DNA of 64,000 nucleotides, from contig LNDT01000013.1 in the NCBI GenBank assembly GCA_001464715.1, forward strand, positions 19,823 through 83,822. The letters are read 5' to 3'. Position 1 is the stretch's first letter, and every line of letters begins with the position of its first letter. Below are positions 17,823 through 39,261 of the stretch, piece by piece. Source of the DNA: Bdellovibrionales bacterium Ga0074137. Its GTDB lineage: Bacteria; Bdellovibrionota; Bdellovibrionia; Bdellovibrionales; JAMPXM01. Both the position numbers and the translations under genes were made by a program. The notes under the pieces are model-generated. The model did not search any database and had not been told where the DNA came from. It saw nothing but the letters and a program-made list of their open reading frames with translations.

Positions 17823-17835
17823 GACCCACGGTCAC
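17823..17835 (-). repeat. 13-mer copy (plus strand reads GACCCACGGTCAC)
   Basis: Exact and intergenic. It starts 1 nt after the maeB stop codon (17820-17822). Confidence 0.95.
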
Positions 17836-19294: not shown

Positions 19295-19299
19295 ATCAG

Positions 19300-21131: not shown

Positions 21132-21137
21132 CGAGCG

Positions 21138-21626: not shown

Positions 21627-21770
21627 ACCAACACCTCAAAAGATAAAGACCAGATCGCTGTTTCTTCAGTCGCAACCTGGTCTTTACGTTTGGAACTATT
21701 TTATTCTAAGCGCAAGCTCTACGCGAGAAACTCCGCTCTCGCGCTTCCCTCTTCGGGACTCTTCTCGGAA

Positions 21771-22612: not shown

Positions 22613-25045
22613 TTATTCTTTCGCTCCAACGCGAAGCTTAAGTCGCTGGACTATTTCATCCGTCGACATCGCCGCTACGGGCTCGACTCCGAAGACATCA
22701 TCTATTTGTCGACCCCACGTATGAACTTTCGCCCACAAAACAGAGAGACCTTCGTCGGCAATGGCTTCGGCCGCAGCTAGGAGTGCGCCCTTCGTGTCTC
22801 GACCTCGAAAACTTAAAACCCACTCGGTCGGCGAGGCCGAACATTCGATCTCATCAAAGATCTTAAGCTCAGCCCCTTCGCAGCTTCTGTCTCTTTCTCT
22901 GGGGCCATCGGCATTCCAAATTCGCAGAAGTTTAGCTTCTAGCCCTTTGAGAGAATTCGGCGGCTTCACTTCGAACCAATCGTAAACTCCAACCTGATCA
23001 GCGGACAAAATACTCGCATGCCGCACCGAAAGGCCTGCAGCCTGAAGCGTTCGGGCCATCTTCACAAAAAGACCAGCGCGATCCACGGACGTTTGAAAAC
23101 GCACCCAGACACGCCCTTCTTTGGAAAGCTTCAACACACGCACCGAGATATTTGGCTCGCGACCCACGGTCACGATGTCTTCAGCCAAAGTCTTCACAGG
23201 AATCGTTGCGACCAAGAAAGGATCTAAACGATCAAGCAGCGGCAAGAGTTCGCGACCGGCTTTAGACTCATCAAGTTTGCGCTCGAGCGAAGAAAGCATC
23301 TTCGCTTCAGGTCTCTCTAGAAATTCTACCAGCTCCGCCAAAAGCCGTTCTTTCCATGGAGTGTAGGCCTCACGGTTGGTGGCGCGAATGTCGACACACG
23401 TAAAAATCGCCAGCCGAAGAAGGCGTTTTCCTTCAATACCTTTAGCATGGAGTCGGCGCCAGGTTGTCGGATGCGCCGGATTTCCGCGGAAAGCCGCCAG
23501 CGAAAGCTCAAGATGGTTTTCAATGAGCCAAATCACTTCCAAGATCATCTCTTGAGAGAGCCCCCATTTTTCGAGATCGTTTCTTGCGATCATCACTGAC
23601 TTATCTGAGTGATCACCACCAGTGCCCTTTCCGACATCGTGATAAAGTGCGGTCCACCCTAGAATCTTCCACTCATCCCTAGAGAGTGCTTTTGCTATTC
23701 CCGAGAGCCGCCCCAGCGTTCCAGGCTTCTGGGCGACACGTTTCATCTCGCGAACCGCTTGCATCAAGTGCGCATCGACGGTGTACCGATGGTACTGATC
23801 GTGTTGAACGTAACCCACGATCTTTTTGAAATCAGTCACGGCCAAGTCGATCCACCGCGAACGAAAAAGAGCCAGTGTGACTTTGTCGTCTTGAAGCGGA
23901 TCGACCGCGCGAGACAAAAGTCGCCCCAAGGCCTCGTTCGCACGAGTTTTCTCAAGCTCACTTTTTCGCACGGCCGATCGGTAAAGTCGAAAGCCAGTGT
24001 CTCGCGCTTTCGCCTGAACCAGCACCGTGGGCTCCTTTTCAAGCCAGGCGGCAAGCTCGACAAATTCCATTTCTTTGGAATGAAACCTCTGAAGCTTAAC
24101 TTCTGAGATTTTGACGTGCTCAAAATCAACGTCGGCATAGAACGAAACGCGCGACAGGCCTTTTTGAATCTCTCGCATAAATTCGCGACTGGATGTGAAG
24201 CCAAACCACGTGGCGATGTCGGCCTGTTCGTGAGCACTCAAAAGATCGCCGCCACCATCAGACACCTGACTTCGAATTCGAGTCAGAAGAAAAAGTCGCC
24301 GGTAGTAATCATAGACATGAAGGGCATGCTCTCGCTCTGAGCTTAAAAATCTCTCCGGAAAAAGCTGACGCAGTTGAAGCGCTTGACCAAGATCGCGAAG
24401 ACCGCCGGGGCCATATTTAAGATTGGGCTCCAAGAAATTCGCGATCGAATCGTAGCGCTCGCCTCTTTGCTTTCGCTCGTCTTTAAGGGTTTTAAAAAAA
24501 CCACGCCGAACTTTTTTTAGCTTGGCTTTGACCTTCGAAATTCCCACCGCAAAGTGAGTCGCCGCGTCCTCGGTGAGCGGTTTTGCCAATAAAAGTGCAA
24601 GAACATCGAAAGCTTCTACACCTTTCATCCAATCGTCGCGGTCTTCAGGAGTTCGACTGCGGATTTTGATGCCAGCCTCTTGAGCTCGTCGTGTAACTTC
24701 GGCCGCCGCGGCTTCGTCGCCGATAAAAAGTAGATCAAGATCTGATTTTGGCGTCAATTCACCGCGGGCCCAACTTCCCAGAGCAATCGGTCGAGACCGC
24801 GCCCAGGCCGACGCCGAGGCCGCATCCTCTGTAAAGAACGCGATGATCGCTGATTCCAAGGCCAAGGTGAAAGCCGACAAATGAAGGGTCTCTGCCGCCT
24901 CTTCTTGCCCGTCGGGAACTGTTGACGGCGGCAAAAGGTGTTTTTTCGCTAGCTCTAAGATTTCATCTTTAGGCAGAAGAAATCGCGACCGCGAAGACAT
25001 CTTACTAATTGCGCCGGTTTCTAGCTTTGAAGTTCCTTTGTCCAC
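22613..25045 (-). CDS. glnD: [protein-PII] uridylyltransferase / uridylyl-removing enzyme
   Basis: 810 aa with an NTase motif (GSWARGELTPKSDLDLLF), an HD domain (LYHDVGKG) and two C-terminal ACT-like domains. The alternative start ATG 25000 would remove the overlap with mutS. Confidence 0.8.
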   Translation of the reverse strand: MDKGTSKLETGAISKMSSRSRFLLPKDEILELAKKHLLPPSTVPDGQEEAAETLHLSAFTLALESAIIAFFTEDAASASAWARSRPIALGSWARGELTPKSDLDLLFIGDEAAAAEVTRRAQEAGIKIRSRTPEDRDDWMKGVEAFDVLALLLAKPLTEDAATHFAVGISKVKAKLKKVRRGFFKTLKDERKQRGERYDSIANFLEPNLKYGPGGLRDLGQALQLRQLFPERFLSSEREHALHVYDYYRRLFLLTRIRSQVSDGGGDLLSAHEQADIATWFGFTSSREFMREIQKGLSRVSFYADVDFEHVKISEVKLQRFHSKEMEFVELAAWLEKEPTVLVQAKARDTGFRLYRSAVRKSELEKTRANEALGRLLSRAVDPLQDDKVTLALFRSRWIDLAVTDFKKIVGYVQHDQYHRYTVDAHLMQAVREMKRVAQKPGTLGRLSGIAKALSRDEWKILGWTALYHDVGKGTGGDHSDKSVMIARNDLEKWGLSQEMILEVIWLIENHLELSLAAFRGNPAHPTTWRRLHAKGIEGKRLLRLAIFTCVDIRATNREAYTPWKERLLAELVEFLERPEAKMLSSLERKLDESKAGRELLPLLDRLDPFLVATIPVKTLAEDIVTVGREPNISVRVLKLSKEGRVWVRFQTSVDRAGLFVKMARTLQAAGLSVRHASILSADQVGVYDWFEVKPPNSLKGLEAKLLRIWNADGPRERDRSCEGAELKIFDEIECSASPTEWVLSFRGRDTKGALLAAAEAIADEGLSVLWAKVHTWGRQIDDVFGVEPVAAMSTDEIVQRLKLRVGAKE
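23161..23173 (-). repeat. 13-mer copy (plus strand reads GACCCACGGTCAC)
   Basis: Exact, inside glnD. The coding strand reads GTG ACC GTG GGT C = V-T-V-G (EDIVTVGREPN). The coordinate was cross-checked from the ORF frame. Confidence 0.95.
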
Positions 25046-27864
25046 TCTGAGATCTTGCCCAAGGCTTCAAGCGGAGTCGAGCGATTGACATCAAAGCGCT
25101 CAATCTCTTTTAAAACTCCCTCAGCTTTTGGACTGATCGCTGGCCATGAAGGCGCGTCGAGGAGAAGCGAAAGCTGAGCACTTTGCGCAACTTTGGCAGA
25201 GCTCGTCGAAACGATGGGCTCGCGATGCACGACTCCGCTTGCAACACTTCCTTGAACGTCGCGAAGAATTCGCTCGGCCCGGTTTGTTACGGACAGCGGA
25301 AGTCCCGCAAGGCGCGCGACGTGAAGTCCGTACGACTGACCCGCCTCACCGTCCTTCAGGCGATGAAGGAATGTGATGACGCCGTCTTTTTCATGAATCG
25401 CCATGTGACAGTTCCTGATGCGATCGAAGTCTTTTTTTAGCGCCGTCAGTTCGTGATAGTGTGTTGCGAACATCGTGAGACATCGCTTTTGTTCGAGCAA
25501 ATGTTCAAGTATCGCTTGAGCAATGCTCAGACCGTCAAATGTCGAAGTTCCACGCCCGATCTCGTCAAGAACGACCAGCGTTCTTTCATTCGCGTCAGCC
25601 AAAAGCTCGGCTGTTTCTTTCATCTCAACCATGAATGTTGAAAGGCCTTCGGATAAGAAATCACTCGCACCGATGCGAGTTGCCACACGATCTAAAAGTG
25701 ATAACTCGGCTTCCCGGGCTGGAACAAAACTTCCGACCTGAGCCATGATGACAGCGATGGCCGCTTGCCTCATTAAGGTCGACTTACCCGCCATGTTCGG
25801 TCCTGTTAGAAGAAGGCACCCGCCTTCATCCATACTGATATCGTTTTCGACGAACGGTTTTGAAAGAGACTGTTCGACAACGGGATGCCGTGAACCTTTC
25901 AGTCTTAGGCCGACCGGCTGCGTGGAGCTTCGAAAACGAGGTCTTATGTAACGCTCTTCACTGGCGAGATGAGCCAAAGCCGACACGACATCAAGCTCTG
26001 CCAGACTCAAAGCAAAACGCATCAAAACTTTCGACTGACTGAGTACGAACTGAACAAGTTTTAAAAACTCTTCTTCTTCCAGCTTCAAACGCTTTTCCTG
26101 AGCCGAGATGACCTTGAGCTCGAGCTCGGAGAGTTCTTTCGTCGTGAAACGTTCGGCATTGGCCAGAGTTTGCTTTCGTTCGTAGCGATCCAACGGCACT
26201 CGTTCTTTGTGCGTATTCGTGATTTCGATCGAGTAGCCGAAGACATTGTTGTAGCGAACTTTGAGTGACGAAATACCGGTGAGTTCTTTTTCTCGGGCTT
26301 CAAGCTCCAGCACAAGACGATTTGAATTCGTCGACAATTCTATCAGCTCATCAAGCGCAGGACTTGCCCCAAGGCGAATCGCTCCGCCGTTTCGAACAAG
26401 AAGTGGCGGCTCTTCCACAATCACTCGCTCAATTTCTTTGACCACACTTGAAACTAGATCGGCTTCAGCCCTCGTAAATCCTTGCGACAAGCGCTCATCC
26501 ACAGATTGGGCCGCTTGCCAGCTGCTAAGGCCCGAAGCCAAAGATTGTGCTAGCGACAAGATGTCTCGTGGACCTCTTGATGGCTGACTGATTTTTCCCA
26601 GTCTTCTTGGAAGGTCACCGACGCCGGCCAACGCTTGCCGAAGACTTTTTCTGTTGAGATCACTTTGAACCCAAGTGCTCACCCGATCATGTCTTGCCGC
26701 GATCGCCGTCTCGTCATTGAGAGGGAACTGAAGCCATGACTTAAGAAGCCTCGCGCCCCCACTCGATTTCGTGCGGTCGATGGCTTGTAGCAAAGAACCT
26801 TGCCGCTCCCCTCGATTGGTTTCAAAGATTTCTAAATGCCGAAGTGTAGAGCCCGACAAAACCATGCGTCCTTCAAGACGTCGTTCTTCAAATGGCGTTA
26901 GAGAGTCGGCCCACACCTGCGCAGCACCACGGCCGCCGGTGGTTGAGACCGTGCTTGCATTGGAGAACTGCCCGATCGAATAAGCGAGAAGGCGACGAAC
27001 ACAGTCCGGACTGTTTTTATCGACCGTCGGCTCTATGATTTCTCCGTCAGCGGCGATCCATGAAAAATCATCTTGAGCTGTGAGAGAGGCACCCATTTTG
27101 TCGGCGAATTCTTTAATCTCGGGTCTGTCGGCATTGTCGCTGGATAAAACCCACTCAACAGCCTGAAGACTTCCCAAAAATTCTCGGCATCGATCTCGCG
27201 AAACGCCGCGGAAATAAAATCCTTCGCCCGTTGAGACGTCAAAAAATGCCAACGCTCCATCAGCGTCCCACGACGCCAAATAATTCGCGCTCGACGCATC
27301 TAAAGTTTCGTGGTCATAGACCATGCCAGGCGACAGCACGCGCGTGATCCCGCGCTTCACCAAGCCTTTAGCAAATTTCGGATCTTCCAACTGATCACAG
27401 ATCGCGACTTTGAAACCGGCGTGCAAAAGTTTATTGATGATGTTGGTGGCCGAATGATGAGGCACTCCGCACATCGGCGTTTCGTCTTGCGACTTTTTAT
27501 TGCGAGACGTGAGAGCGATGCCAAGGACGGGTGCCGCGAGTTCTGCGTCCCGGTGGAACATTTCAAAAAAATCACCCATGCGGAACAAAATAATCTTGTC
27601 CGGGTGCGCGGCCTTCACATCCCAGTACTGCTGCATTAAGGGCGTTATTCGCCCTGCGGGCGAGGGCGTTATTCGCCCTGCGGGCGAGGGCGTTATTCGC
27701 CCTGCGGGCGAGGGCGTTATTCGCCCATGAGGTGAGGACGACGAGGATTTCTGGAGACCCACGGTCACTTCGGAGCCCACTTCTGAATCAACTGCCATAC
27801 CGAATTCGATATCATCACCGGCGGGAGCTCTCCTCTCCCAATGCAGCGCAACAACACTAATCAT
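25021..27864 (-). CDS. mutS: DNA mismatch repair protein MutS (start uncertain)
   Basis: The conserved MutS core starts at ITPLMQQYW...GDFFEMF and includes the Walker A TGPNMAGKST. The track ORF runs to 27945. Candidate starts are ATG 27864 (GAAGG about 10 nt upstream), ATG 27798 and ATG 27636. Confidence 0.85.
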   Translation of the reverse strand: MISVVALHWERRAPAGDDIEFGMAVDSEVGSEVTVGLQKSSSSSPHGRITPSPAGRITPSPAGRITPSPAGRITPLMQQYWDVKAAHPDKIILFRMGDFFEMFHRDAELAAPVLGIALTSRNKKSQDETPMCGVPHHSATNIINKLLHAGFKVAICDQLEDPKFAKGLVKRGITRVLSPGMVYDHETLDASSANYLASWDADGALAFFDVSTGEGFYFRGVSRDRCREFLGSLQAVEWVLSSDNADRPEIKEFADKMGASLTAQDDFSWIAADGEIIEPTVDKNSPDCVRRLLAYSIGQFSNASTVSTTGGRGAAQVWADSLTPFEERRLEGRMVLSGSTLRHLEIFETNRGERQGSLLQAIDRTKSSGGARLLKSWLQFPLNDETAIAARHDRVSTWVQSDLNRKSLRQALAGVGDLPRRLGKISQPSRGPRDILSLAQSLASGLSSWQAAQSVDERLSQGFTRAEADLVSSVVKEIERVIVEEPPLLVRNGGAIRLGASPALDELIELSTNSNRLVLELEAREKELTGISSLKVRYNNVFGYSIEITNTHKERVPLDRYERKQTLANAERFTTKELSELELKVISAQEKRLKLEEEEFLKLVQFVLSQSKVLMRFALSLAELDVVSALAHLASEERYIRPRFRSSTQPVGLRLKGSRHPVVEQSLSKPFVENDISMDEGGCLLLTGPNMAGKSTLMRQAAIAVIMAQVGSFVPAREAELSLLDRVATRIGASDFLSEGLSTFMVEMKETAELLADANERTLVVLDEIGRGTSTFDGLSIAQAILEHLLEQKRCLTMFATHYHELTALKKDFDRIRNCHMAIHEKDGVITFLHRLKDGEAGQSYGLHVARLAGLPLSVTNRAERILRDVQGSVASGVVHREPIVSTSSAKVAQSAQLSLLLDAPSWPAISPKAEGVLKEIERFDVNRSTPLEALGKISEWTKELQS
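27640..27726 (-). repeat. perfect 24-bp tandem repeat x3.6 in the 5' region of mutS
   Basis: The plus-strand unit GGGCGTTATTCGCCCTGCGGGCGA occurs at 27640, 27664 and 27688, with a partial copy at 27712-27726, all identical. It encodes (GRITPSPA)x3 + GRITP. Each unit contains the palindrome GGGCG-TTATT-CGCCC. Confidence 0.95.
27756..27768 (-). repeat. 13-mer copy (plus strand reads GACCCACGGTCAC)
   Basis: Exact, in the mutS 5' extension. It reads V-T-V-G (GSEVTVGLQK), 30 bp from the 24-bp tandem repeat. Confidence 0.95.
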
Positions 27865-27935
27865 TGAACTAAAGCCTTCTAGAGCGAACGATCTCGATCT
27901 GAGGCCGCAAGCGACCACCATCCAAGGAGCCCGGG

Positions 27936-28586
27936 ATGCGCACAAATCGCCGAATTTTTACGCTCGTTCGACTGATCATCGGCATCAATATCGCCGTCTT
28001 TGTGGCGTGGCTCTACTCGGGATCTGGCGAAATCGATCGCGACCTAATGACAAACTATTTCCTCATCAGCTTTGAAGCCCTTCAAGAGGGGCGATACCTA
28101 GCACTTCTTGGGTCCGCCTTCTCACACAATATGCTTTTGCATGTGGCTCTAAATCTCTTCGTGCTGAACAGCTTCGGGCCCATCGTTGAAATGACTCTTG
28201 GTGCCCGACGATTTCTTGGATTTTATCTCGTGGCGAGCGTGGTGAGTTCCCTCTCGCATGCTCTCGTCTCAAACTACATTTTGCAGGAACCAAATCTTCC
28301 CGCTCTTGGTGCGTCCGGAGCGATCGCGGGACTTATTTTGTTGTTCTCACTTTTATTTCCAAAACAGAAGATTCTCATCCTCGGGATTATCCCCGTCCCC
28401 GCGTTTTTCGGAGCGCTACTTTTTATCGGTTTGGATCTTTGGGGCCTCAGCGCGCAAGCAAAAGGCGGCGGTCTTCCGATAGGCCACGGCGCCCATTTAG
28501 GAGGAGCGGCCGCGGGACTCGTCTACGGAATCTGGCTTCGCGCTGAAGCCAGTCGCCGCGAAAAATTGGACGACCTCAAGTCGTAG
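27936..28586 (+). CDS. rhomboid-family intramembrane serine protease
   Basis: 216 aa, polytopic, with a GASGAIAGL serine motif and HGAHLGG histidine motif. Confidence 0.8.
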   Translation: MRTNRRIFTLVRLIIGINIAVFVAWLYSGSGEIDRDLMTNYFLISFEALQEGRYLALLGSAFSHNMLLHVALNLFVLNSFGPIVEMTLGARRFLGFYLVASVVSSLSHALVSNYILQEPNLPALGASGAIAGLILLFSLLFPKQKILILGIIPVPAFFGALLFIGLDLWGLSAQAKGGGLPIGHGAHLGGAAAGLVYGIWLRAEASRREKLDDLKS

Positions 28587-28618
28587 CATTTTGAGCCGGA
28601 TGACTCTTTCGATGCTAC

Positions 28619-30874
28619 CTATTTCAGACGATCCCACAAATATCGATATTCACGAGCCGCTAGCGCCGCTTTTGACTCGAGCGTTGCGGCCCCGGCGTGC
28701 CCACCTTCGATATTTTCATAGTAAAGAACTGGGAGACCCATTTCTTTCATACGAGCGACCATACGCCTTGCATGACCTGGGTGAACACGGTCATCGCGAG
28801 TCGACGTTGTAATGAATGGCTCAGGATACTTTACTCCGGGTTTCAAATTCTGAAACGGCGAATACTTCTCAAGAAAAGTTCGCTCCGCAGGAATTTCCGG
28901 ATCTCCGTACTCACCCACCCACGAGGCACCTGCGAGAAGTTTATGAAAACGAAGCATATCTAGAAGCGGAACTTGGCAAAGAATTGCGTTAAATAAATCA
29001 GGTCGCTGAGTCATGGCGACTCCGGCCAAAAGACCACCGTTTGAGCCCCCTCTGAAACCTAAATGTGCGCTCGACGTTAAACCACTTTGAATCACGTGTT
29101 CTGCGACGGCGTAGAGATCGTCGAACGCATTCTGACGTTTTTCTTTCAAAGCAGCACGGTGCCACTTCGGTCCAAATTCGCCGCCGCCACGAATGTTCGC
29201 AACGACAAAAGCTCCGCCGCGCTCAAGCCACACTTTTCCTTGGGCTCCAAGGTAGTAAGGAACCGAGGGAATTTCAAAACCTCCGTATGCATTGATCACG
29301 GTCGGCGTCTTGCCTGACTTTCGATTTACACCTTTTGGAAGAACAAGAAAGTAAGGCACTTTCGTTCCGTCTTTACTAACAGCGTAGTGCGTTTCTACTT
29401 TCATCCCTAAAGCATTGAAACGTTTGGGACTTGATCGAAGAACTGAAAGGGTTCCCGATGCATCACCTAAATACATTTCATACGGCGTCAAAAAGTCCGA
29501 AAAGAACACTGTGAAATTGGTTTCATCGGAACTCGAAAATCCCATCGAGACGGAACCATTTCGGCTGGGGAGCTTCACGGGCTTCAATTTCCACTGGCCA
29601 ATATCAGCTTTGTTTTTTGGAGGAACTCTTTCAAGAAATGCCAACCGACCTCGGACATTGTCGAGATAAGAAATCAAAGCCCGTTCTTTTGTCGTCGAAA
29701 TTCCAGAAAATGTTTGCGTCGCTGAAGGTTCAAATACGGATTCAACCGCAATCGCCGCCGATGGATCTTTTTTCCAAATTTCAACATCGAAGGCGTAGGC
29801 TATTCCCGACTTTAAGGAATTCCCAAAAACCGTCGCGTCCTTTTTGATCGTGAAAAGCAGGAGGCCGTTCGACAGACCGACAATTTCACTTGTCAGCGGA
29901 AGTGGGATCTTCTCCCAGCTGTCATCATCTCTACGAACGTAATGCTCTCCCTCGTTGGAAGTAAGGTACCGAGATACCAAATCCACCTTCTGATCCACGG
30001 TCACCCCGTCTCGAACGTAAGTCGATCGAAGTGTGTCCGCCCAGACTCCGACGTCCGTGACCTCACCCTTAAAAATCACAGGAGTGCTCGCGAGATCCGT
30101 TCCCCGCTTCCAGAGCTTCAAAGTCATCGGATATCCGGCCTCCGTCACTGTGCCGGGTCCTGCGGGAGCGCCGACCCACAAAGTGTCATCATCGCGCCAA
30201 TCGATATTCATTTTGGCTTCAGGTAAAAAGATTCCGCCTTTGACGAAGTCTTTCGCCGCTAAGTCGAACTCGCGAACGACGATGGCATCGCCTCCTCCGC
30301 GTGAAAGATAAAGAAGGCAGCGATCCTGAATGTTCGGAGCACACTCAATACCTTTATAAACCCAAGACTCTTTTTCAGCTTTTGCAATCGCGTCGAGATC
30401 GAAAATCGTCTCCCAGACGTCGGAACCCATTTTAAATTCGGTCAGCGATTGGCTGCGATAAATTCCTTTTTGATTCTTTTCATCTTGCCAAAAATTGAAG
30501 ACGACCGCGGCTTTGCCTGAACCCCTCACTGAAATCGAAGGAATACGATCTTTGGCTTGGATAATCGTAAGTACGTCGGACTTGATATCGCGAAAAAGCT
30601 GATCTTGTCCAAGCCGAGCCTCCGACTCTTTATTTCTCGCCTCGACCCACTTCAATGCATCGACACCGTAAATATCCTCAAGCTCCAAAAAAGAATCCAA
30701 GCCCGCCACTCCCCCTGCATTACTTTTACCATCTCGACCATCCAGGCTTTCTCGCCCTTGACCCACGGTCACGCTGGGACCCGACTGGCATGATGCAAAA
30801 ACCACCAACGACACGCCGATTGAAAGTACGACGGTCGCCATCCTCTGACTCCAGAAACTAAACTGAGTTTTCAT
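28619..30874 (-). CDS. prolyl oligopeptidase family (S9A) serine peptidase, probable lipoprotein
   Basis: ATG 30874 gives MKTQFSFWSQRMATVVLSIGVSLVVFASC (lipobox). It has a beta-propeller N-terminal half and the catalytic GGSNGGLL. The track ORF extends to 30958. Confidence 0.8.
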   Translation of the reverse strand: MKTQFSFWSQRMATVVLSIGVSLVVFASCQSGPSVTVGQGRESLDGRDGKSNAGGVAGLDSFLELEDIYGVDALKWVEARNKESEARLGQDQLFRDIKSDVLTIIQAKDRIPSISVRGSGKAAVVFNFWQDEKNQKGIYRSQSLTEFKMGSDVWETIFDLDAIAKAEKESWVYKGIECAPNIQDRCLLYLSRGGGDAIVVREFDLAAKDFVKGGIFLPEAKMNIDWRDDDTLWVGAPAGPGTVTEAGYPMTLKLWKRGTDLASTPVIFKGEVTDVGVWADTLRSTYVRDGVTVDQKVDLVSRYLTSNEGEHYVRRDDDSWEKIPLPLTSEIVGLSNGLLLFTIKKDATVFGNSLKSGIAYAFDVEIWKKDPSAAIAVESVFEPSATQTFSGISTTKERALISYLDNVRGRLAFLERVPPKNKADIGQWKLKPVKLPSRNGSVSMGFSSSDETNFTVFFSDFLTPYEMYLGDASGTLSVLRSSPKRFNALGMKVETHYAVSKDGTKVPYFLVLPKGVNRKSGKTPTVINAYGGFEIPSVPYYLGAQGKVWLERGGAFVVANIRGGGEFGPKWHRAALKEKRQNAFDDLYAVAEHVIQSGLTSSAHLGFRGGSNGGLLAGVAMTQRPDLFNAILCQVPLLDMLRFHKLLAGASWVGEYGDPEIPAERTFLEKYSPFQNLKPGVKYPEPFITTSTRDDRVHPGHARRMVARMKEMGLPVLYYENIEGGHAGAATLESKAALAAREYRYLWDRLK
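29992..30004 (-). repeat. near copy of the 13-mer, 12/13 (GATCCACGGTCAC on + strand)
   Basis: Inside the S9 peptidase gene, same frame as the exact sense copies: V-T-V-D (RDGVTVDQKV). Confidence 0.8.
30760..30772 (-). repeat. 13-mer copy (plus strand reads GACCCACGGTCAC)
   Basis: Exact, in the S9 peptidase gene just after the lipobox Cys. It reads V-T-V-G (CQSGPSVTVGQGR). Confidence 0.95.
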
Positions 30875-30996
30875 AGGCTCCAGGCTCGGAGCGATTTCAC
30901 GATCCGTCAAGTGCCAAGCACTCGGATCATCGCCAAAGAATTCCCCTTGAAGTCTCAAGCTTACTAACGAATCCTATCGACGTAGGAGAGCCCACG

Positions 30997-32517
30997 ATGG
31001 AGCAAAATTCAAAGCCCGTAAAAGAACGAAAGCCAACAAAGTCGTTCGACTTAAAGCCTGGGGATCATATCCATTTCATGGGAATCTGCGGCACCGCAAT
31101 GGCTTCTCTGGCCGGCCTTCTTCACTCGCAAGGATATAAAATCACGGGATCTGACCAAAACGTTTATCCTCCGATGTCGACTCAACTTGAGTCTTTGGGA
31201 ATTAAGATTCTTTCTGGCTACAAACGCGAAAACCTGACACGAAATCCCGTAGGGACTCCGAACCTTGTTATCGTCGGAAACGTTATTTCTAGAAACTTCG
31301 AGGAAGCAGAAGCACTTCTCGAGAGCGATATTCCCTTCACAAGTCTTCCCCAGGCGATGGGTCAGATTGTCATCGGTCGTCGCCACTCGGTGGTCGTCGC
31401 CGGAACTCACGGCAAGACTACGACCACGGCGCTAAATTCGTATGTGGCCGAATCCCTAGGGCTCCATCCTGGATTCATGGTCGGTGGAATTCCAAAAAAC
31501 TTTGGGCAAAGTTACCGATTTGGTTCGGGCGATTGGTTCATTATCGAGGGCGACGAATACGATACGGCCTTCTTCGATAAGGTCCCAAAATTCATTCACT
31601 ATCGGCCGCGATCAGTGATTCTAAATTCGGTTGAATTTGACCACGCGGATATCTATAGGGATCTCGATCACGTTAAAGAAGCTTTTCTTATGTTGATCGA
31701 TCTGATTCCTGAGGGTGGACTTCTCATAGCTTGCGAGGATGAAGAGACAATCCGCGATCTTTTATCTCGTCGAAAAGAAAGTTTAGCGAAAAGAAATGTC
31801 AAAGTTGTAACTTTTGGTCTCACGCGCGGTGATCATCGAGCTGAGAATTTGGAAGCCGTTCCTGTCAAAGGGCTCGGTTCAAAAGAACAAGCTTTGCGCC
31901 TTGGAACACGTTTTTCCTACCGCGGTCAGAAAATCGACATCCCGATGATCGGCTCTTACAACGTAAAGAACGCTCTAGCGACGATAGCGCTATGGACGGA
32001 ACTGGGGCACCCAGCGTCCGAGATTGCTCCACGCCTTCTTGGCTTTGAAGGTGTAAAACGCCGTCAAGAAGTTCTGGGAACTCCCGGTGGCGTCACGGTG
32101 ATCGAGGATTTCGCGCACCACCCGACGGCCGTTCGAGAAACGATCCGCACTGTTCAAATGCAGTATCCGAAGTCCCACGTTTTTTCGATTTTTGAAGCGC
32201 GCTCGGCGACATCGCGCCGAAATGTTTTTCAAGACGAGTACGCAGCAGCTTTCATCGATGCAGGAACTCAAAGTCTTTTGCTGCCTCCACCCTTTAATCT
32301 TGCCGGCTTAAAAGAGGCCGATCGTTTTTCAACCGACGTACTCTTAAAACGACTGCATGATTCCAAAGTCGACGCGGTTCTTTTTGATGGAGTTGATTCC
32401 ATCGTAAAAAATGTCATCTCCCGTGCAAAACCCGGAGATGTCGTTCTCGTCATGTCCAATGGTGGCTTTGACGGAATCTATCAGAAGCTTCTGTCGAGCT
32501 TAGAAAGTGTTCGCTAA
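30997..32517 (+). CDS. mpl: UDP-N-acetylmuramate:L-alanyl-gamma-D-glutamyl-meso-DAP ligase (murein peptide ligase)
   Basis: 506 aa; HFMGICGTAMASLAGLL is the Mpl-type N-terminus. It has the Mur ligase central domain (GTHGKTTTT) and ends MSNGGFDGIYQKLL. Confidence 0.75.
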   Translation: MEQNSKPVKERKPTKSFDLKPGDHIHFMGICGTAMASLAGLLHSQGYKITGSDQNVYPPMSTQLESLGIKILSGYKRENLTRNPVGTPNLVIVGNVISRNFEEAEALLESDIPFTSLPQAMGQIVIGRRHSVVVAGTHGKTTTTALNSYVAESLGLHPGFMVGGIPKNFGQSYRFGSGDWFIIEGDEYDTAFFDKVPKFIHYRPRSVILNSVEFDHADIYRDLDHVKEAFLMLIDLIPEGGLLIACEDEETIRDLLSRRKESLAKRNVKVVTFGLTRGDHRAENLEAVPVKGLGSKEQALRLGTRFSYRGQKIDIPMIGSYNVKNALATIALWTELGHPASEIAPRLLGFEGVKRRQEVLGTPGGVTVIEDFAHHPTAVRETIRTVQMQYPKSHVFSIFEARSATSRRNVFQDEYAAAFIDAGTQSLLLPPPFNLAGLKEADRFSTDVLLKRLHDSKVDAVLFDGVDSIVKNVISRAKPGDVVLVMSNGGFDGIYQKLLSSLESVR

Positions 32518-33121
32518 AAAGTTCGACAACACGGCGCCAACTTTTTCCTTTTTGAAGAAGCTTACGGGACGGAACAAATCCTTGAGCTTCTAGCTGGTTC
32601 AAAGTGACGTAGTCTCTTACGGTTCTAAAGTGCCTTCCCCAATAAACACGCTTCGAGTAGGGACGTGCATCCCAAAATCCACGCTCCACTACGGCATCTC
32701 GGCCAGTATTCCCTCCCTTCCCTCCCTTCCCTCCCTTAACCCCCTTCCCTCGACCCACGGTCACCTTCCTTTGATCGGCGATTCTTCGGAATCCGACAGC
32801 TCTTGCGATCCCACCAGCGAGGCCCGAAATAAACCCCTTCCACTTGAGTGGCCGAGTCACTCTCAAATGAATGTGAATGTGGTTCCCAACATTGGCGAAC
32901 TTATAGATCGTAACTCCGTGACGTTCCGACATCCCGCGAATGAGCCGTTGAATCTTTGCTTCGTTCTTTAGAAGACTCATTCGGCCTCGCGCGAGCGAAC
33001 TACGCATCACCACGTGCATAGATTGGTACGACACCACGGGACGCCGTACTCGAACACTTCGGGTCGTTCGCTTTCCGGGATTAAAAACTTCAGGAGTAAG
33101 TTGGCGTTTGATTTTTTTCAT
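32450..33121 (-). CDS. HUH / Y1 tyrosine transposase-like protein (IS200/IS605 TnpA superfamily, RAYT-like), single copy
   Basis: It has HVVMRSS...IYKFANVGNHIHIHLRV (HUH motif) and RGFWDARPYSKRVY...RTVRDYVTLNQ (catalytic-Tyr Yxxx(N)(Q/P) block). A low-complexity insert lies between the two motifs and carries one 13-mer copy and a KGG x3 repeat. I saw no tnpB and no IS ends. The 3' end overlaps mpl convergently by 68 bp. The track ORF start is 33139; ATG 33121 (MKKIKRQL) is preferred. Confidence 0.6.
   Translation of the reverse strand: MKKIKRQLTPEVFNPGKRTTRSVRVRRPVVSYQSMHVVMRSSLARGRMSLLKNEAKIQRLIRGMSERHGVTIYKFANVGNHIHIHLRVTRPLKWKGFISGLAGGIARAVGFRRIADQRKVTVGRGKGVKGGKGGKGGNTGRDAVVERGFWDARPYSKRVYWGRHFRTVRDYVTLNQLEAQGFVPSRKLLQKGKSWRRVVELFSEHFLSSTEASDRFRQSHHWT
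32711..32737 (-). repeat. perfect 9-bp tandem repeat x3 (CCCTCCCTT on + strand) inside the Y1 gene
   Basis: Copies at 32711-32719, 32720-32728 and 32729-32737 are identical. They encode KGG-KGG-KGG and lie 14 nt from the 13-mer copy at 32752. Confidence 0.95.
32752..32764 (-). repeat. 13-mer copy (plus strand reads GACCCACGGTCAC)
   Basis: Exact, inside the Y1 transposase-like gene. It reads V-T-V-G (QRKVTVGRGKG). Confidence 0.95.
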
Positions 33122-33238
33122 GAGCCACACGCTCAGCAAATTCGAAACTGCGGTCCTTAGAAACGTAGCGAATCCTCACCAAAATCCGGGATCCTTAAGT
33201 CCGATTTACGAACCCTGTTGTTGGTCCGAGTCGCAGCC

Positions 33239-33251
33239 GTGACCGTGGGTC
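33239..33251 (+). repeat. 13-mer copy GTGACCGTGGGTC, array member 1
   Basis: Exact and intergenic, upstream of the Y1 gene start. Confidence 0.95.
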
Positions 33252-33271
33252 AGAAGATGGCTAGGTGTCGT

Positions 33272-33284
33272 GTGACCGTGGGTC
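33272..33284 (+). repeat. 13-mer copy GTGACCGTGGGTC, array member 2
   Basis: Exact and intergenic, 33 bp after member 1. Confidence 0.95.
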
Positions 33285-33296
33285 AAAGTTGAAGTG

Positions 33297-33309
33297 GTGA
33301 CCGTGGGTC
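33297..33309 (+). repeat. 13-mer copy GTGACCGTGGGTC, array member 3 (extends to palindrome GTGACCGTGGGTCAC)
   Basis: Exact, 25 bp after member 2. The next two bases (AC) complete 6-bp arms around a GTG centre. It overlaps the TGA stop (33308-33310) of the hydrolase gene. Confidence 0.95.
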
Positions 33310-34495
33310 ACTGGAGGGCGGTTTTTACTAAGGTGTGCAGGGCTGGTCGGAGCTGGAGGAAGCGTGTGTTCTTTCGAGTTGGGTGGACTCGATTCGATAA
33401 AATAGTGACCAATAAGTCGGATTTTGGATCGTACCACAGCGATGTTCCGGTAAAACCTGTGTGACCGATACTCGAAAGTGAAAACTTCGGTCCACACGAT
33501 GCGCTCCCTTTCGTTGGCATCATAAAACCCAAGGCCCAGTCGCCTTTTGACCTTGAAACGGCGCGGTCCAAAAATTTTCGTCCCGATAATGGCAATTTTG
33601 ATTTCATCCCGAGGTGAAGTTTTCTCAACTCAAGTCCGTAACGGCTCAAATCTCCGATGGGGCCGAAAAGACCAGCATGAGGCGCTATCCCCTTTAGACT
33701 CGACGTATTCTCATCGTGCACTTCACTTTTTAGACCCCGCTTACGCCACGTCGAATCGAATTCGGTGGGCGCAGTTTCCGAAACGCGGTCCTTATTCCAG
33801 ATGAGACCGGGCCGAGCAGCTCCGTCTCGCTTCAAATCATTTTTTGAAAGTGCATTATAGAAAGTAGATTTAAGACCAAGTCGCTCCTGAATTCTGGCGT
33901 ACTGCTCTGGAAATCCCATGAGACTTGAGCGTCTCAAAATTTCGCCGAGTAAAAAGAAATCCAAATCCGAATAGATCGCAGAACCTCGCTGCGCCTTCGA
34001 GATTTCTCCACTCCTCGCCCGTTTCCTCACGTCCCGAACGACCAAATCAAAGAGCAGCGTCCACGCCTCTTCATGAGTTCCAGGAGATTTTAAAGATACC
34101 TGCTTGTAAAATGGCTTCCACCACGTCATTCCCGCCGAGTGGCAGAGAAGGTCTCTGATCGTCAATCGGCCAAGCGGTGACCGTGGGTCCATGAGAGAGG
34201 GGGATGGGAGGAGTTCAGGGAGCCAGTTAACGACGGGGTCTTTTAAGGAGAGGTGACCTTCGTCGACTTCGATCATGGTGCTTGAGACTGACATCACGAT
34301 TTTTGTCAGCGAGGCCCAATCATAGATCTCCGACGTTTCACCGCAAGCGACGTCGATTCGAAGTTTTCCGCTCTCCCACGCCTGCAGTCGAAATCCCGGG
34401 GCTGCATCTTGCCACTGTGATCCATCTTTTGGATGAGTCCAATTGTCCAAAAGATTCAGAAACGACTTTTCGACCGGTCGAGCTCGACGTGACAT
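33308..34495 (-). CDS. beta-lactamase-family serine hydrolase (AmpH / DD-peptidase-like)
   Basis: 395 aa with the S-x-x-K motif (DWASLTKIV) and a class C / PBP4*-like fold. Its start overlaps the ldcA stop. Confidence 0.7.
   Translation of the reverse strand: MSRRARPVEKSFLNLLDNWTHPKDGSQWQDAAPGFRLQAWESGKLRIDVACGETSEIYDWASLTKIVMSVSSTMIEVDEGHLSLKDPVVNWLPELLPSPSLMDPRSPLGRLTIRDLLCHSAGMTWWKPFYKQVSLKSPGTHEEAWTLLFDLVVRDVRKRARSGEISKAQRGSAIYSDLDFFLLGEILRRSSLMGFPEQYARIQERLGLKSTFYNALSKNDLKRDGAARPGLIWNKDRVSETAPTEFDSTWRKRGLKSEVHDENTSSLKGIAPHAGLFGPIGDLSRYGLELRKLHLGMKSKLPLSGRKFLDRAVSRSKGDWALGFMMPTKGSASCGPKFSLSSIGHTGFTGTSLWYDPKSDLLVTILSNRVHPTRKNTRFLQLRPALHTLVKTALQ
34177..34189 (+). repeat. 13-mer copy GTGACCGTGGGTC
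   Basis: Exact, inside the AmpH-like hydrolase gene. The coding strand reads GAC CCA CGG TCA C = D-P-R-S (LMDPRSPLG). Confidence 0.95.
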
Positions 34496-36931: not shown

Positions 36932-39261
36932 TACTGTCTTTCAAATGAGAGATTTTTAAAGGCGCTGGACCATCCCGAGTCGTAGTCCATTTTCAATTCT
37001 AAAAGATTCACATCCAAAGTTCCTTCCGGATCGGTGTCCGAAGAAGATCCGGACTCGATTACAAAACGGTGACCGTGGGTCGTTCCAATCAAGTGAAGTG
37101 ACCGTGGGTCGCCGCCGTGAGAGGCGAACCGATTGCGAAGAGCTTCTAAGCTTTCAGTGCTTGAGATCAGGACTTCGTAGGAGACTTCACAAAACAAAGA
37201 TTCAGCAAAGCTCATCTTAGCCAGATCGGGCCTCGCAGCCTGGGTCGCTGAGCGACTGAGGCGAACGCCGATATTCTTTGAGATCGCCATTCGCGCCAAC
37301 GCGTAGCCAAGACCGAACTTACCAACCACACGAGTTGCCGAAATCGTATTCTCTGTAGCCGGAGAATGAGGCCCAACACCTTCGGTGAGCTTTCGGAGCG
37401 AAGTGACGAGGGCAGCGATTTCTTTTCCGTTCAGCGTCCCGAAAGCTCGAGGCCCTGTACTTTCCGGGCCCGTGACTTCTCCCATCGCGCCGCTGGTCCA
37501 GAGTTGTGGAAGCCGCAGCAAAAATACGTTTTCGCCTTCATGTACGAAATCGCTTTTTGGAAGTGAAGTGACCGTGGGTCGTAGGCCGACGACGCCAGTT
37601 GAAGGCGTTGGTGTGATCCCGCGACCTTCGGTTTCGTTATAAAAGCTGACGTTACCGCTGATGATCGGAGCCACTAGGCTTTCACAAATTTCGTTGAGGC
37701 CAGAAAGAGCTGCGACAAAAGAGCTCATCACCGGAACTCTTTCCGGATTTCCGAAATTCAAACAGTCCGTAACGGCCAGTGGCTCAAAACCTTTTGCCGC
37801 AAGCTCAAGGGCTGGAAATGCAACAGCATCAAGCCCCCCTTCTCTCGCATCAAGTCTCATCATTTGAGGCCGACACCCTAAAACAATTCCTAATCCCCGC
37901 CCAGAGTCCTTCAAGCGAATGACACCGACGGATTCGTGGCAATCGGCCGCCGTGGATGCTCCAACGTGACCGTCATATTGCCGAAAAATAAATTCCCGCG
38001 AACATCCTTGTGGAGATGAAAGTGCTGTCCTCAGCGAGGCACGAATATCTGCAGCACTTTCGCCAGCGATATCGGCGACACTAGCCACCCGGTTCGACGG
38101 CGTCCACGGTTCGAATGGTCGTTCGTACATCGGTGCATGCTCTGTCAAAAGCTCGGGATCGATCTCCGTAAGAAGATCTCCCTTCCAAAAAAGCTTCATC
38201 GTTTTTTTCGCTGTGACTTCGCCGATAGCGACGGCTTCAAGTCCCCAACGTTTAAACAATGCTTCCACATTAGAAAGTTTCGCTGGCTCCACAACCATCA
38301 ACATTCGCTCTTGGCTTTCGCTCAGGAGAATGTCCTCGGGTTGAAGCGTAGACTCGCGCAAAGGAACGCGGTCCAAATGTAGGTTGAAGCCGACGCCACC
38401 CTTGGATGCCATTTCAAAAGAAGATGAAGTAAGTCCTGCGGCGCCCATATCTTGTATCGCCACGACGAGATCTTGCTCCATCACTTCAAGACACGCCTCG
38501 ATCAAAAGCTTCTCAAAAAACGGATCTCCGATCTGAATTGTCGGACGTTTTTTTTCGGAGTCCTTTCCAAAACTTTCCGAAGCCATGCTCGCTCCGTGAA
38601 CGCCATCACGTCCCGTCTTGGCTCCTGCGTACACCACAAGATTTCCGACACCTTTGGCTTTCGACAAAAAGACTTTCTCGCCTTTTCTAAAAAGACCGAC
38701 GGCCATTGCATTCACGAGAACGTTTTTGTCATAGCTAGGATCGAATTCAGTCTGTCCTGTGATTGTCGGAACCCCGACCGGGTTACCATAACCACCGATA
38801 CCGCGAACAACTCCATCAACAATCTTTTCCATTCGTTCGGCCTGGGGACGTCCGAAACAAAGATAGTCTGCGACGGCGATCGGTCGCGCGCCCATCGTGA
38901 AAATATCGCGCAGGATACCACCGACACCCGTCGTGGCTCCTTGATAGGGCTCAATAAAACTTGGATGATTGTGGCTTTCGATTTTAAAGGCCACACGCTC
39001 GCCATCGCCAAGATCAACGACGCCGGCATTTTCGCCAAAGCTCTGAAGCACGCGCTCAGATTTATTGAATAGACCTTTTAAATGAACTCGCGAACTTTTG
39101 TACGAGCAGTGTTCGCTCCACATGGCCGAGAAAAGCGCCCACTCGACGCCCTGAGGCTCTCGCCCCAAAAGTCCGGCGATACGGCGATGCTCCGACTCAT
39201 TTAATCGGTAATGTTTTAGTTTTTCTTGGAGTTCTTTGTTGTCGCGCTGATCTTGCCCCAT
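36928..39261 (-). CDS. purL: phosphoribosylformylglycinamidine synthase subunit PurL (FGAM synthase II)
   Basis: Duplicated AIRS-type domains ([20 protein letters not shown]). ATG 39261 lies 6 nt after the purQ stop. The track ORF extends to 39315. Confidence 0.9.
37069..37081 (+). repeat. 13-mer copy GTGACCGTGGGTC
   Basis: Exact, at the purL 3' end. The coding strand reads G ACC CAC GGT CAC = T-H-G-H (IGTTHGHRF). Confidence 0.95.
37098..37110 (+). repeat. 13-mer copy GTGACCGTGGGTC
   Basis: Exact, in purL. It reads D-P-R-S (GGDPRSLHL) and sits in the 21-nt block AAGTGAAGTGACCGTGGGTCG (37091-37111). Confidence 0.95.
37568..37580 (+). repeat. 13-mer copy GTGACCGTGGGTC
   Basis: Exact, in purL. 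It reads GA CCC ACG GTC AC = P-T-V-T (LRPTVTSLP). The identical 21-nt block occurs at 37561-37581. Confidence 0.95.

Follow-up and report, generated by a model that had tools for sequence, protein, structure and literature searches.

Opposed polar copies of a 13-nucleotide motif around a putative RAYT-like Y1/HUH nuclease gene in Bdellovibrionota: a probable minimal REP-like system

To our knowledge, it is not understood how the RAYT-type Y1 nucleases create and keep up their repeat families, nor has the transposition of a REP been reconstituted so far. Inverted REPs invariably flank the RAYT genes, and near rayt they pile up in some genomes (PMC2817692), a concentration which has been read as preferential production of new copies there (Nunvar et al. 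2010, PMC2817692). TnpA-REP binds the REP only as a single strand (PMC3333891). The tyrosine motif of the class-2 enzymes is Y---NP (PMC6006769), and there are precedents both for a repeat inserted in frame within the gene and for intragenic REPs (PMC6006769, PMC3733652). The 13-mer layout described here is an unusual, local and largely intragenic version of this known arrangement, i.e. of a gene flanked by inverted repeats.

The window, that is the whole stretch of DNA that was analysed (64 kb), contained 13 exact copies of GACCCACGGTCAC, while the number of exact copies expected by chance was 0.00 (100 shuffles), and one near copy, GATCCACGGTCAC, was detected at 29992 on the plus strand by a mismatch search of the window. 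For each of the 13 exact copies the coordinates and strands reported in a first-pass annotation of this DNA were reproduced exactly. The 14 copies all fell inside 17823-37580, and no copy was found in the remaining 44 kb of the window. On the left of the polarity switch, six of six copies read GACCCACGGTCAC on the plus strand, the in-gene copy at 32752 being grouped with these; on the right of it seven of the eight copies read GACCCACGGTCAC on the minus strand, the exception being the copy at 34854. The features were the following:

17823..17835, plus strand: outermost copy of the downstream arm, abutting the stop codon of a plus-strand malic enzyme gene
23161..23173, plus strand: downstream-arm copy in glnD (VTVGR); the orthologous position of L001 has 2 mismatches
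27756..27768, plus strand: downstream-arm copy, probably in the mutS leader or an N-terminal extension, adjoining a 24-bp tandem repeat
29992..30004, plus strand: downstream-arm near copy, GATCCACGGTCAC, in an S9 peptidase gene; the same variant is kept in L001
30760..30772, plus strand: downstream-arm copy in the S9 peptidase gene (VTVGQ), directly after the lipoprotein signal
32450..33121, minus strand: Y1/HUH gene, encoding 223 aa when read from the ATG at 33121; a TTG at 33139 opens the longest ORF
32700..32751, no strand: low-complexity tract beside the in-gene copy, C/T-rich on the plus strand and G-rich on the coding strand
32752..32764, plus strand: in-gene copy coding for VTVG, located between the HUH and Tyr motifs; the downstream arm starts with this copy
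32765..33238, no strand: polarity-switch interval, comprising the 5' half, leader and promoter region of Y1
33239..33309, minus strand: three-copy array (33239, 33272, 33297), 118-188 nt upstream of the Y1 ATG
34177..34189, minus strand: upstream-arm copy in a serine-hydrolase (beta-lactamase fold) gene, coding for DPRS in a variable loop
34854..34866, plus strand: exception of the upstream arm, in an LD-carboxypeptidase gene (VTVGQ), in the 'wrong' orientation
37069..37110, minus strand: upstream-arm pair (37069, 37098) in the C-terminal part of purL, coding for THGH and DPRS
37568..37580, minus strand: outermost copy of the upstream arm, in purL (RPTVT), an exact copy

At least 10 of the 14 copies in the window were intragenic, and the host ORFs of the intragenic copies were all on the minus strand; the statement of the first-pass annotation to this effect holds, with the addition that some copies are intergenic (33239, 33272, 33297) and others not, or only doubtfully, intragenic (17823, 27756). 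Only the 13 nt were conserved among the copies, the flanks were not. In the 13-mer a stem of 4 bp (GACC/GGTC) encloses a loop of 3 nt and is followed by AC on the 3' side; the hairpin is weak (-2.2 kcal/mol). Neither a GT[AG]G head nor a CnGA foot was seen at the window copies, a C being present at position -2 in only 3 of the 14. The last copy of the array forms a full palindrome, GTGACC-GTG-GGTCAC, and the serine-hydrolase gene upstream ends with the TGA of this copy. L001 and L004 have orthologous arrays that are degenerate in part. The L001 ortholog of the copy at 27756 is situated 57 nt upstream of the called mutS start. The loop encoded by the in-gene copy is disordered in the AF2 model (pLDDT <50), and the resulting peptide, (V/M)TVGRGFW, is conserved in the clade of 51-100% identity and was not present in the more distant Y1 homologues compared. 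The neighbouring low-complexity tract (32700..32751) codes for GKGG repeats and differs between orthologues. A further match with 2 mismatches was obtained at 8732; since 1.1 such matches are expected, it is compatible with chance. This match is close to the point syntenic with the Y1 gene of L088, but it was set aside, its orientation being wrong and its occurrence within the chance expectation.

The Y1/HUH protein is predicted to be RAYT-like. Its HUH motif is NHIHIH and its catalytic tyrosine is found in DYVTLNQ; N80, H81 and H83 were invariant in 41 homologues, and Y171 (in DYVTLNQLE, on helix 163-180 of the model) was conserved in at least 90% of the homologues. The AF2 model (pLDDT 77) resembles IS608 TnpA and the E. 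coli TnpA-REP structure 4er8, the latter giving the best rigid structural fit (rmsd 2.7 A), and the top 30 Foldseek matches were all Y1 transposases (2vic, 2a6m, 4er8, 2xma, 2f4f, 2ec2; E 9e-5 to 5e-3, probability 1.0). A profile of the protein matched 2a6m and 2vhg with an E value of 0.0015. With the Pfam Y1_Tnp model (PF01797) the window protein scored 21.3 bits against a cut-off of 23; precomputed PF01797 matches exist for several homologues, and some sources call the homologues 'REP element-mobilizing transposase RayT'. The NCBIfam models gave no match for the window protein, and its relatives reached at most 22 bits with REP_Tyr_transpos (cut-off 80) and at most 27 bits with transpos_IS200 (cut-off 55). 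The dN/dS of the Y1 gene was 0.05 in comparison with L001, which corresponds to strong purifying selection, as for the neighbouring genes, and its position is syntenic across the window, L001, L004, L007 and L099. No tnpB was found near the Y1 gene in the window, and no sigma-70 consensus upstream of it was revealed by the promoter scan.

Throughout the whole Y1 protein family the promoter or the start codon carries one motif copy oriented like the gene itself, and in L007, L087, L088, L099 and L102 this copy overlaps the ATG. In the multi-copy 180-aa sister subfamily the promoter has the form TTGACn-17 nt-TA[GACC(CAC/CTC)GGTC]AC, often after GTAG; the clear TTGAC-17-TAGACC promoter and the GTAG head preceding the motif were confined to this subfamily. 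In the clade of 51-100% identity a second, inverted copy is present within the gene. The core motif, GACCCACGGTCAY, was found around Y1 homologues of 47-100% identity in several genomic contexts, namely serine-hydrolase-mpl (window, L001-L007, L099), acyltransferase-SH3 (L088/L089) and the neighbourhood of mraZ (L087).

When the array and the pair were each counted once, 10 of 11 units in the window alone were consistent with one polarity per arm (p about 0.01); the significance of the polarity thus rests on its replication in other loci and not on the window alone. The same rule was found at the syntenic relatives L001, L004, L007 and L099. At L088 there were five upstream and four downstream copies with no exception, at L087 four upstream and three downstream copies with one exception (L087 3300), at L007 one copy on each side, and at L099, where the upstream arm is missing, four downstream copies, all in the correct orientation. 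Altogether the rule was obeyed at 18 of 19 replicate sites (p=3.8e-5). The orientation flip which the first-pass annotation had seen at the Y1 locus from the 13 exact copies and one near copy is therefore real, and the small-sample accident against which it had warned is contradicted by this replication at other loci. The rule-breakers were two conserved copies, window 34854, which has the same orientation in L001 and L004, and L087 3300. The downstream copies of L088 are situated in genes of both strands, which bears out the earlier claim that the flip is independent of the strand of the host genes; likewise, a change of the coding strand across 33 kb does not explain it. The flip had been placed at the Y1 locus and is indeed centred on the Y1 gene; a point missed in the first-pass annotation is that the centre is the 5' half of the gene and not the array alone. 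A function at the RNA level was considered and rejected, the L088 downstream copies being sense in one gene and antisense in the next.

The flip is tied to the Y1 gene: it recurs with the Y1 gene of this clade in at least three contexts, and not a single copy was found at gene-less syntenic loci (L100, L101). Similarly, no copy was detected in the 3.5-16.5 kb stretch of the window, compared with L088 and devoid of the gene, or in the outer parts of L087, L088 and L005. In the loci compared, the copies occur only where the Y1 gene is present. The polarity is dictated by this gene and not by replication or host-gene transcription. Over-represented 11- and 12-mers were sought at 80 loci of GTDB genomes (31-51% identity), and comparable clusters were not found except at L007 (51%), which has two copies of the 13-mer motif. 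L019 and L062 carry unrelated REP-like repeats. The paralogues of the JADJOF MAG have only the coding sequence and the promoter motif in common. Scanning of metagenomes for two copies 8-38 nt apart yielded nine matches, mostly unrelated tandem coding repeats, none with a Y1 homologue in the short DNA scanned. No Rfam family was found in the window, and a literature search for the 13-mer sequence returned unrelated primers only.

Conservation of the sites was compared with that of the surrounding DNA. Between the window and L001, 10 of 12 sites were identical at 13 of 13 positions, as against 6.4% of the background windows, the flanks being 73% identical; between the window and L004 the corresponding values were 6 of 9 sites, 3.8% and 66%. 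With a dS of about 2.4 the synonymous sites are saturated. Judged from these alignments, the copies, once present, are unchanged while the synonymous sites around them saturate. At empty orthologous positions 5-12 of the 13 bases differ (9-10 in the genomes that lack the copy at 34177), and intermediates between the empty and occupied states are almost absent; the pattern is all-or-none, each copy being a 13-nt patch or a short insertion located in a variable protein loop or a leader. No indel accompanies the replacement of sequence at most sites, and the purL RPTVT site is only 5 changes from its empty state. Fresh insertions or tandem duplications, at the purF/ldcA junction (L001, L004) and at L088 6966, hold several copies.

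The reading which we prefer, with a probability of roughly 0.7, is that the 13-mer is the cognate site of the adjoining RAYT-like Y1/HUH protein, a minimal REP-like element, and that the locus is REPtron-like. The link between the protein and the motif appears strong, as guilt by association. The RAYT-like nuclease would be inherited vertically, and its site would have spread locally and in a polar fashion from two inverted seeds. These seeds are the promoter copy and the inverted copy in the in-gene loop, and the flanking arms keep the polarity of the nearest seed, hence the orientation flips in the 5' half of the gene. Like other Y1 enzymes, the protein may recognise the motif on single-stranded DNA, strand-specifically and mainly in cis, and the promoter copy may serve as an autoregulatory operator or an 'end'. 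A process radiating outward from the locus, as favoured in the first-pass annotation, is plausible but unproven. Its geometry fits, since on either strand the GTGACCGTGGGTC form occurs only 3' of the centre, as expected if a single-stranded DNA substrate or copying starts centrally and proceeds outward on each strand. The generation of new copies outward from the two seeds is put forward only as a tentative proposal, a possibility rather than an expectation. A more specific version, namely that the Y1 enzyme writes the 13-nt site in cis in strand-polar short patches, the arms growing outward, and that the sites then act as polar nick, termination or barrier sites, must be regarded as unlikely. 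Such short-patch writing would usually replace sequence without a change in length, and a role of the written sites as polar nick, termination or barrier sites would explain their retention until the synonymous sites saturate.

Several observations speak against the RAYT-like reading. The motif is far shorter than the canonical REPs (20-40 nt) and its hairpin is weak; the protein is below the cut-offs of the curated RAYT and IS200 models and has Y----Q, not the Y---NP of class 2. The uniform polarity of the arms and the length-neutral replacement patches are not predicted by known RAYT chemistry. Finally, there are the two conserved rule-breakers, and L099 is without an upstream arm.

The main alternative to outward writing is selection, at the level of the host, of sites born by mutation. 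According to this, the protein would be a domesticated site-specific binder, and copies that arose by mutation, not by the action of the enzyme, would have been selected by the host or the gene as auxiliary operators, sinks or polar roadblocks surrounding the promoter copy, their orientation being a consequence of how a higher-order complex is built or of the direction in which the machine that they stop travels. The family-wide copy at the promoter or ATG, the long-term purifying constraint on the sites and the strong purifying selection on the Y1 gene, similar to that on its neighbours, are all in line with such a role, and mutation could account for the sites which replace sequence with no indel (the majority), for the purL RPTVT site (5 changes from empty) and for the glnD site (only 2 from its L001 orthologue). 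However, the all-or-none pattern (0 versus 5-12 differences, with intermediates almost absent) and the presence of several copies in the fresh insertions or tandem duplications of L001, L004 (purF/ldcA junction) and L088 (6966) are not what mutation and selection would be expected to leave, 14 sites across 20 kb are many for an operator system, and the solved relative binds single-stranded DNA only (PMC3333891). We consider this explanation quite unlikely.

At TerB/tus and at rtp, opposed polar groups of sites are located beside the gene of the binding protein. A replication fork trap of this Ter-like kind, or KOPS-like sequences converging on a terminus or dif-like site at 33 kb, had been left as an alternative in the first-pass annotation, and the two opposed groups of conserved sites adjoining the gene of a presumed binding protein would agree with it. 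In contrast, the GC skew was negative in all 32 2-kb bins, over the whole 64 kb, with no switch at 33 kb, and at L087 the local skew has the opposite sign, yet the polarity still follows the gene. Since the skew never switches in the window and the polarity at L087 follows the gene, Ter- and KOPS-type explanations were rejected as very improbable. Moreover, the cluster moves with the gene, the same polar arrangement being present at Y1 paralogues in unrelated chromosomal contexts, gene-less syntenic loci have no sites at all, and no tus, rtp, dif or recombinase feature was seen.

The ends of complex transposons such as Tn7 and Mu typically carry opposed groups of repeated binding sites. The groups seen here recall these ends, and the copies might then be the terminal inverted repeats, each with several sites, of a composite transposon or large mobile island which carries Y1 and the enclosed genes. 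This is extremely improbable: the enclosed purL, purF, ldcA, mpl, mutS and glnD are core genes, their order is the same in L100 and L101, which lack both Y1 and the copies, and the empty positions differ by substitutions within genes and not by element junctions. A shufflon-like inversion between inverted copies was dismissed by reasoning, as it would join sense to antisense halves of essential genes. As for the flip having arisen by accident in a small sample, or as a side effect of codon usage or of a recurrent VTVG peptide, the window does offer only about 11 independent units (p about 0.01) and all six copies of one orientation read V-T-V-G/D, but the chance of it is negligible, as the rule is replicated by independent loci (p=3.8e-5), copies of the other orientation use all three frames, intergenic copies exist, and the 13 bases are kept although the residues and codons next to them diverge.

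The Bdellovibrionota clade represents a stripped-down RAYT-like case. The site has 13 nt, and its copies, a handful, are all beside the gene and strictly polar in each arm; close relatives allow a comparison of occupied with empty states, and the paralogues with a promoter copy only are natural controls. The sites can be embedded in essential genes (purL, mutS, glnD) and are then held invariant, which matters for annotation and for the interpretation of 'conserved' synonymous sites, and bears on domesticated transposases as local genome-structuring factors. Should the enzyme indeed write its site, this would mean that an HUH nuclease writes sequence locally in nature, and it would offer direct access to the question, still unsolved, of how RAYTs seed their repeats.

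With regard to known systems, the IS200/IS605 elements share the Y1/HUH fold and, as predicted, its chemistry and the recognition of small hairpins on one strand. Unlike these, the clade of the window has no high-identity multiple copies and no tnpB, its ends are inverted and not direct on one strand, and the gene is syntenic and under purifying selection. Tus-Ter, RTP-Ter and FtsK-KOPS-dif similarly have asymmetric sites in two opposed groups, with the binding-protein gene adjoining the sites in the case of Tus-Ter and RTP-Ter, but at the present locus the skew does not switch, the gene to which the sites are tied is movable and paralogous, the scale is 20 kb and the protein involved is an HUH nuclease, not a contrahelicase or translocase. 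KOPS is a short motif skewed over whole replichores and converging on a XerCD dif site, whereas the motif here stays within 20 kb and travels with the Y1 gene.

The class 3 TnpA-Y1 proteins and the TIRtrons/TIRYT were compared by the motifs described (Quentin et al. 2018): the tyrosine motif Y----Q and the HUH motif NH[VI]H are shared, and the flanking repeats are atypical and weakly structured, not canonical REPs. These systems are intermediate between IS and REPtron, a condition seen here as the multi-copy 180-aa sister subfamily. They differ in that the CnGA foot of class 3 was not seen here and the W motif is WK here. A copy of the cognate repeat that is inserted in frame in a peripheral loop, with the HuH motif on one side and the Tyr motif on the other, is known from tnpAREP subclass 2.4 (Quentin et al. 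2018, PMC6006769). In the present case, however, the in-gene copy always has the orientation opposite to that of the promoter copy and marks the polarity switch, it is conserved as the peptide (V/M)TVGRGFW, and both the subclass of the Y1 protein and the phylum of the host are different. Copies in the loops of other genes, including repair genes, have a parallel in the intragenic REPs (Di Nocera et al. 2013, PMC3733652; PMC6006769).

Concentration of the repeats near the gene is shared with the REPs near rayt in three marine gammaproteobacteria and Thauera (Nunvar et al. 2010, PMC2817692), although those occupy regions of up to 200 kb and are canonical extragenic REPs, and arm polarity is not described in the sections of the paper that concern them (PMC2817692). 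From the REPtrons (E. coli yafM, Pseudomonas, Stenotrophomonas) the locus differs in its repeat, which is a 13-nt sequence that lacks a GT[AG]G head and has a stem of 4 bp and not an imperfect palindrome of 20-40 nt, in having one polarity per arm in place of alternating REPIN/BIME pairs, and in the location of most copies within coding sequences, REPtron repeats being mainly extragenic. Further, its copies lie ~5-15 kb around the gene within the DNA examined, whereas REPtron repeats are genome-wide and of high copy number, and its protein has Y----Q and is below the NCBIfam RAYT cut-off. In common with the REPtrons, it consists of a Y1/HUH gene flanked by its own inverted, family-specific repeat, the gene is single-copy within the DNA examined and vertically inherited, the unit is immobile as a whole, the repeats co-occur with the gene, and the fold of the Y1 protein is closest to 4er8.

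The word GACCCACGGTCAC was found in 13 exact copies in the window (chance expectation 0.00), together with one near copy, the GATCC variant GATCCACGGTCAC, at 29992. All 14 copies lie within 17823-37580 and the other 44 kb of the window contain none. The exact-copy search returned the same strands as the first-pass annotation had assigned: left of 33 kb the word is on the plus strand in 6 of 6 copies, right of it on the minus strand in 7 of 8, the exception being the copy at 34854 in ldcA. In the flanks of the copies no conservation was observed outside the 13 bases; the 5' side is biased to C/T (39% C and 18% G across 49 sites of GACCCACGGTCAC) and the 3' side has a weak CG preference. All in-ORF copies with GTGACCGTGGGTC on the coding strand are read in the frame V-T-V-G/D, a TGA arising in one of the two alternative frames; in copies of the opposite sense all three frames are in use (DPRS, THGH, PTVT).

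At the switch lies an ORF on the minus strand (32450-33121), the Y1 gene. Its Pfam Y1_Tnp match is weak (21.3 bits, cut-off 23), and the protein falls below the curated cut-offs of both the NCBIfam RAYT and IS200 models. Its 40 database relatives all belong to Bdellovibrionota/Oligoflexia and are named "REP element-mobilizing transposase RayT" by several sources; the HUH motif (NHIHIH) and the Tyr in DYVTLNQ are kept in the homologues. When the AlphaFold model (pLDDT 77) was used in a PDB structure search, the top matches were exclusively Y1 transposases, the best rigid fit being E. coli TnpA-REP (4er8, rmsd 2.7 A over 159 columns). The dN/dS of 0.05 against the orthologue in the syntenic locus L001, near the values of adjacent housekeeping genes, argues that the gene is functional and vertically inherited. 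Its 3' end overlaps that of the convergent mpl (Mur ligase) by 68 nt (32450-32517), as it also does in L001, L002 and L005. On the Y1 coding strand the in-gene 13-mer is directly followed by a G-rich (GGGAA/GGGAG)n tract (32700-32751), which encodes GKGGKGGKGG; the runs of the tract are G-quadruplex-compatible, and its length and sequence differ in L001 and in a second syntenic locus, L004. Tracts rich in purines are also found after several other copies.

Y1 homologues in two unrelated contexts, L088 (54% identity) and L087 (58% identity), are ringed by the same core word, GACCCACGGTCAY, in the same arrangement as in the window. The copies at these loci and at two syntenic relatives, L007 and L099, are listed below; the Y1 gene of L099 is intact, though missed by the gene finder.

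Core-word copies at other Y1 loci, strands stated with the Y1 gene on the plus strand
L088: upstream 4766+, 4889+, 4996+, 6966+, 7669+; in-gene or downstream 8300-, 9766-, 9979-, 10757-; no exceptions
L087: upstream 3644+, 6673+, 6731+, 6834+; in-gene or downstream 7214-, 7241-, 8484-; exception 3300-
L007: upstream 9909+; in-gene or downstream 10331-; no exceptions
L099: upstream, a degenerate ATG copy, uncounted; in-gene or downstream, 4 copies, all -; no exceptions

When the rule of the window is taken as hypothesis, it is obeyed at 18 of 19 replicate sites (p=3.8e-5). Since the downstream copies of L088 lie in host genes of both strands, the rule is not due to host-gene strand or mRNA sense, and the earlier claim that the flip is independent of gene strand is borne out. 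The GC skew of the Y1 coding strand is positive in the window, L001, L004, L007 and L088 and negative in L087; in all six the polarity of the arms tracks the gene, whatever the sign of the skew. Judged from these sequences, the flip belongs to the Y1 gene itself. A 2-mismatch copy, AAACCACGGTCAC, at 8732-8744, near the point syntenic to the L088 Y1 gene, is oriented against the rule; one such match is expected by chance.

The window, L001 and L004 share the gene order purL-purF-ldcA-serine hydrolase-Y1-mpl-S9 peptidase-rhomboid-mutS-glnD, and both relatives carry the 13-mer at the positions of the window, including the ldcA exception and the GATCC near copy.

Conservation relative to the window
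L001: Y1 76% and DNA 79% identical; 13/13 identical at 10 of 12 alignable sites; background 13-nt windows fully conserved 6.4%; flanks (±40 nt) 73%
L004: Y1 72% and DNA 75% identical; 13/13 identical at 6 of 9 alignable sites; background 13-nt windows fully conserved 3.8%; flanks (±40 nt) 66%

Since the copies stay identical while their flanks diverge and synonymous divergence is saturated (dS ~2.4), the constraint targets the 13-nt DNA word rather than the proteins. The copies are unusual in this long-term conservation of position. Some turnover was observed: 1-2 copies lie in a purF/ldcA-junction insertion of L004 and L001 which is absent from the window, and the glnD copy carries 2 mismatches in L001. 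Directly beside the copy at 27756 (mutS leader or N-terminal extension) stand four tandem units of the 24-bp sequence AGGGCGTTATTCGCCCTGCGGGCG (27639-27734), each able to form a hairpin; L001 has only one related unit there. Replication at the other loci and the conservation statistics rule out a small-sample accident, a possibility raised in the first-pass annotation, and refute chance or codon effects as the cause of the flip.

L088 is syntenic with window positions 3.5-16.5 kb (~74% identity), where the window has no Y1 gene and none of the L088 copies. Zero 13-mer copies were found in L100 and L101, which keep the purL...mutS synteny and lack Y1. Across the 64-kb window and several loci of 11-21 kb, on which this local distribution rests, the copies appear to exist only where the Y1 gene is. 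At the empty orthologous positions 5-12 of the 13 bases differ from the motif, mostly without indel, and these positions fall in variable loops, signal-peptide linkers or leaders; some other copies are placed in short insertions. The rarity of 1-3-mismatch states points to a pattern close to all-or-none. Sample SRR12532592 is the source of both L100 (serine-hydrolase-mpl, no Y1, no motif) and L087 (Y1 near mraZ); if they are one genome, the position of the Y1 gene would differ between close relatives. The identical 13-mer also forms short intergenic arrays in metagenome contigs, some of very different G+C (44-64%) (L095 458-519, LNFM01000286.1; L096 707-743; L092 898-931; L091 1306-1402); the short DNA examined contained no Y1 homologue, and the arrays may be coincidental, orphaned or part of another system.

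A large mobile island was rejected, the genes between the copies being core genes whose order is unchanged in relatives without the system. The fork-trap-like alternative left standing earlier, or KOPS, fares no better: GC skew stays negative throughout the window (2-kb bins) and does not switch, the cluster travels with the gene, and Y1-less syntenic loci lack it.

At five loci the Y1 start codon forms the end of a motif copy, or of a variant with the stem preserved, GACCnnnGGTC|ATG; the loop varies (CAC, CTC, TTC, TAC) and the stem is mostly preserved.

Copies overlapping the Y1 ATG
L007: 9909
L087: 6834
L088: 7926
L099: ~11297
L102: 9990

This placement points to a structural or operator role where translation or transcription starts. 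The homologues P0011 and P0012 (49% identity) have the start-codon copy alone, with no in-gene copy and no arms. A sister subfamily of 180-aa proteins (41-45% identity) numbers at least 16 copies in one long-read MAG and often sits at contig ends in another (L009-L037, JADJOF01 and JAEUWE01 MAGs). Its promoter is TTGACn-17 nt-TA[GACC(CAC/CTC)GGTC]AC, and the canonical REP head GTAG often stands before the motif. The subfamily forms no local clusters, has no common downstream end and may be an IS-like relative. Since the 5' copy extends through all these branches, the promoter copy is the ancestral state; arms were seen only in the subclade which also has an inverted copy in the HUH-Tyr loop, disordered in the AlphaFold model. 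Near distant Y1 homologues, GTACCGTTCCAA occurs three times on the plus and then three times on the minus strand (L019 14360-17903), and L062 has REP-like inverted repeats immediately upstream of its homologue (8837-9991).

In this geometry GTGACCGTGGGTC on either strand is found only 3' of the centre. A strand-specific, single-strand-dependent process, starting at the centre and running outward, would make or use such arms; the same arms would follow if each new copy were added distal to an existing same-strand copy. Either may be their source; an origin of the copies by selection alone is a serious rival.

Every RAYT gene has a cognate REP on each side, the two being inverted relative to each other, and some genomes show an accumulation of REPs close to the gene (PMC2817692); TnpA-REP binds single-stranded REP only, and its cleavage goes through a 5'-phosphotyrosine link (PMC3333891). 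Since each ingredient is covered by published work, the locus is best filed as a REPtron-like unit, in which the link between protein and sites is associative. The Tyr motif of the Y1 protein is Y----Q, the signature of classes 1 and 3, whereas class-2 RAYTs have Y---NP (Quentin et al., PMC6006769). For a REPtron-like unit the 13-nt size, the weak hairpin (-2.2 kcal/mol), the mostly intragenic copies and the tight locality (64 kb and loci of 11-21 kb) are unusual, and the arms are of uniform polarity, in contrast to the alternating pairs of the REPtron.
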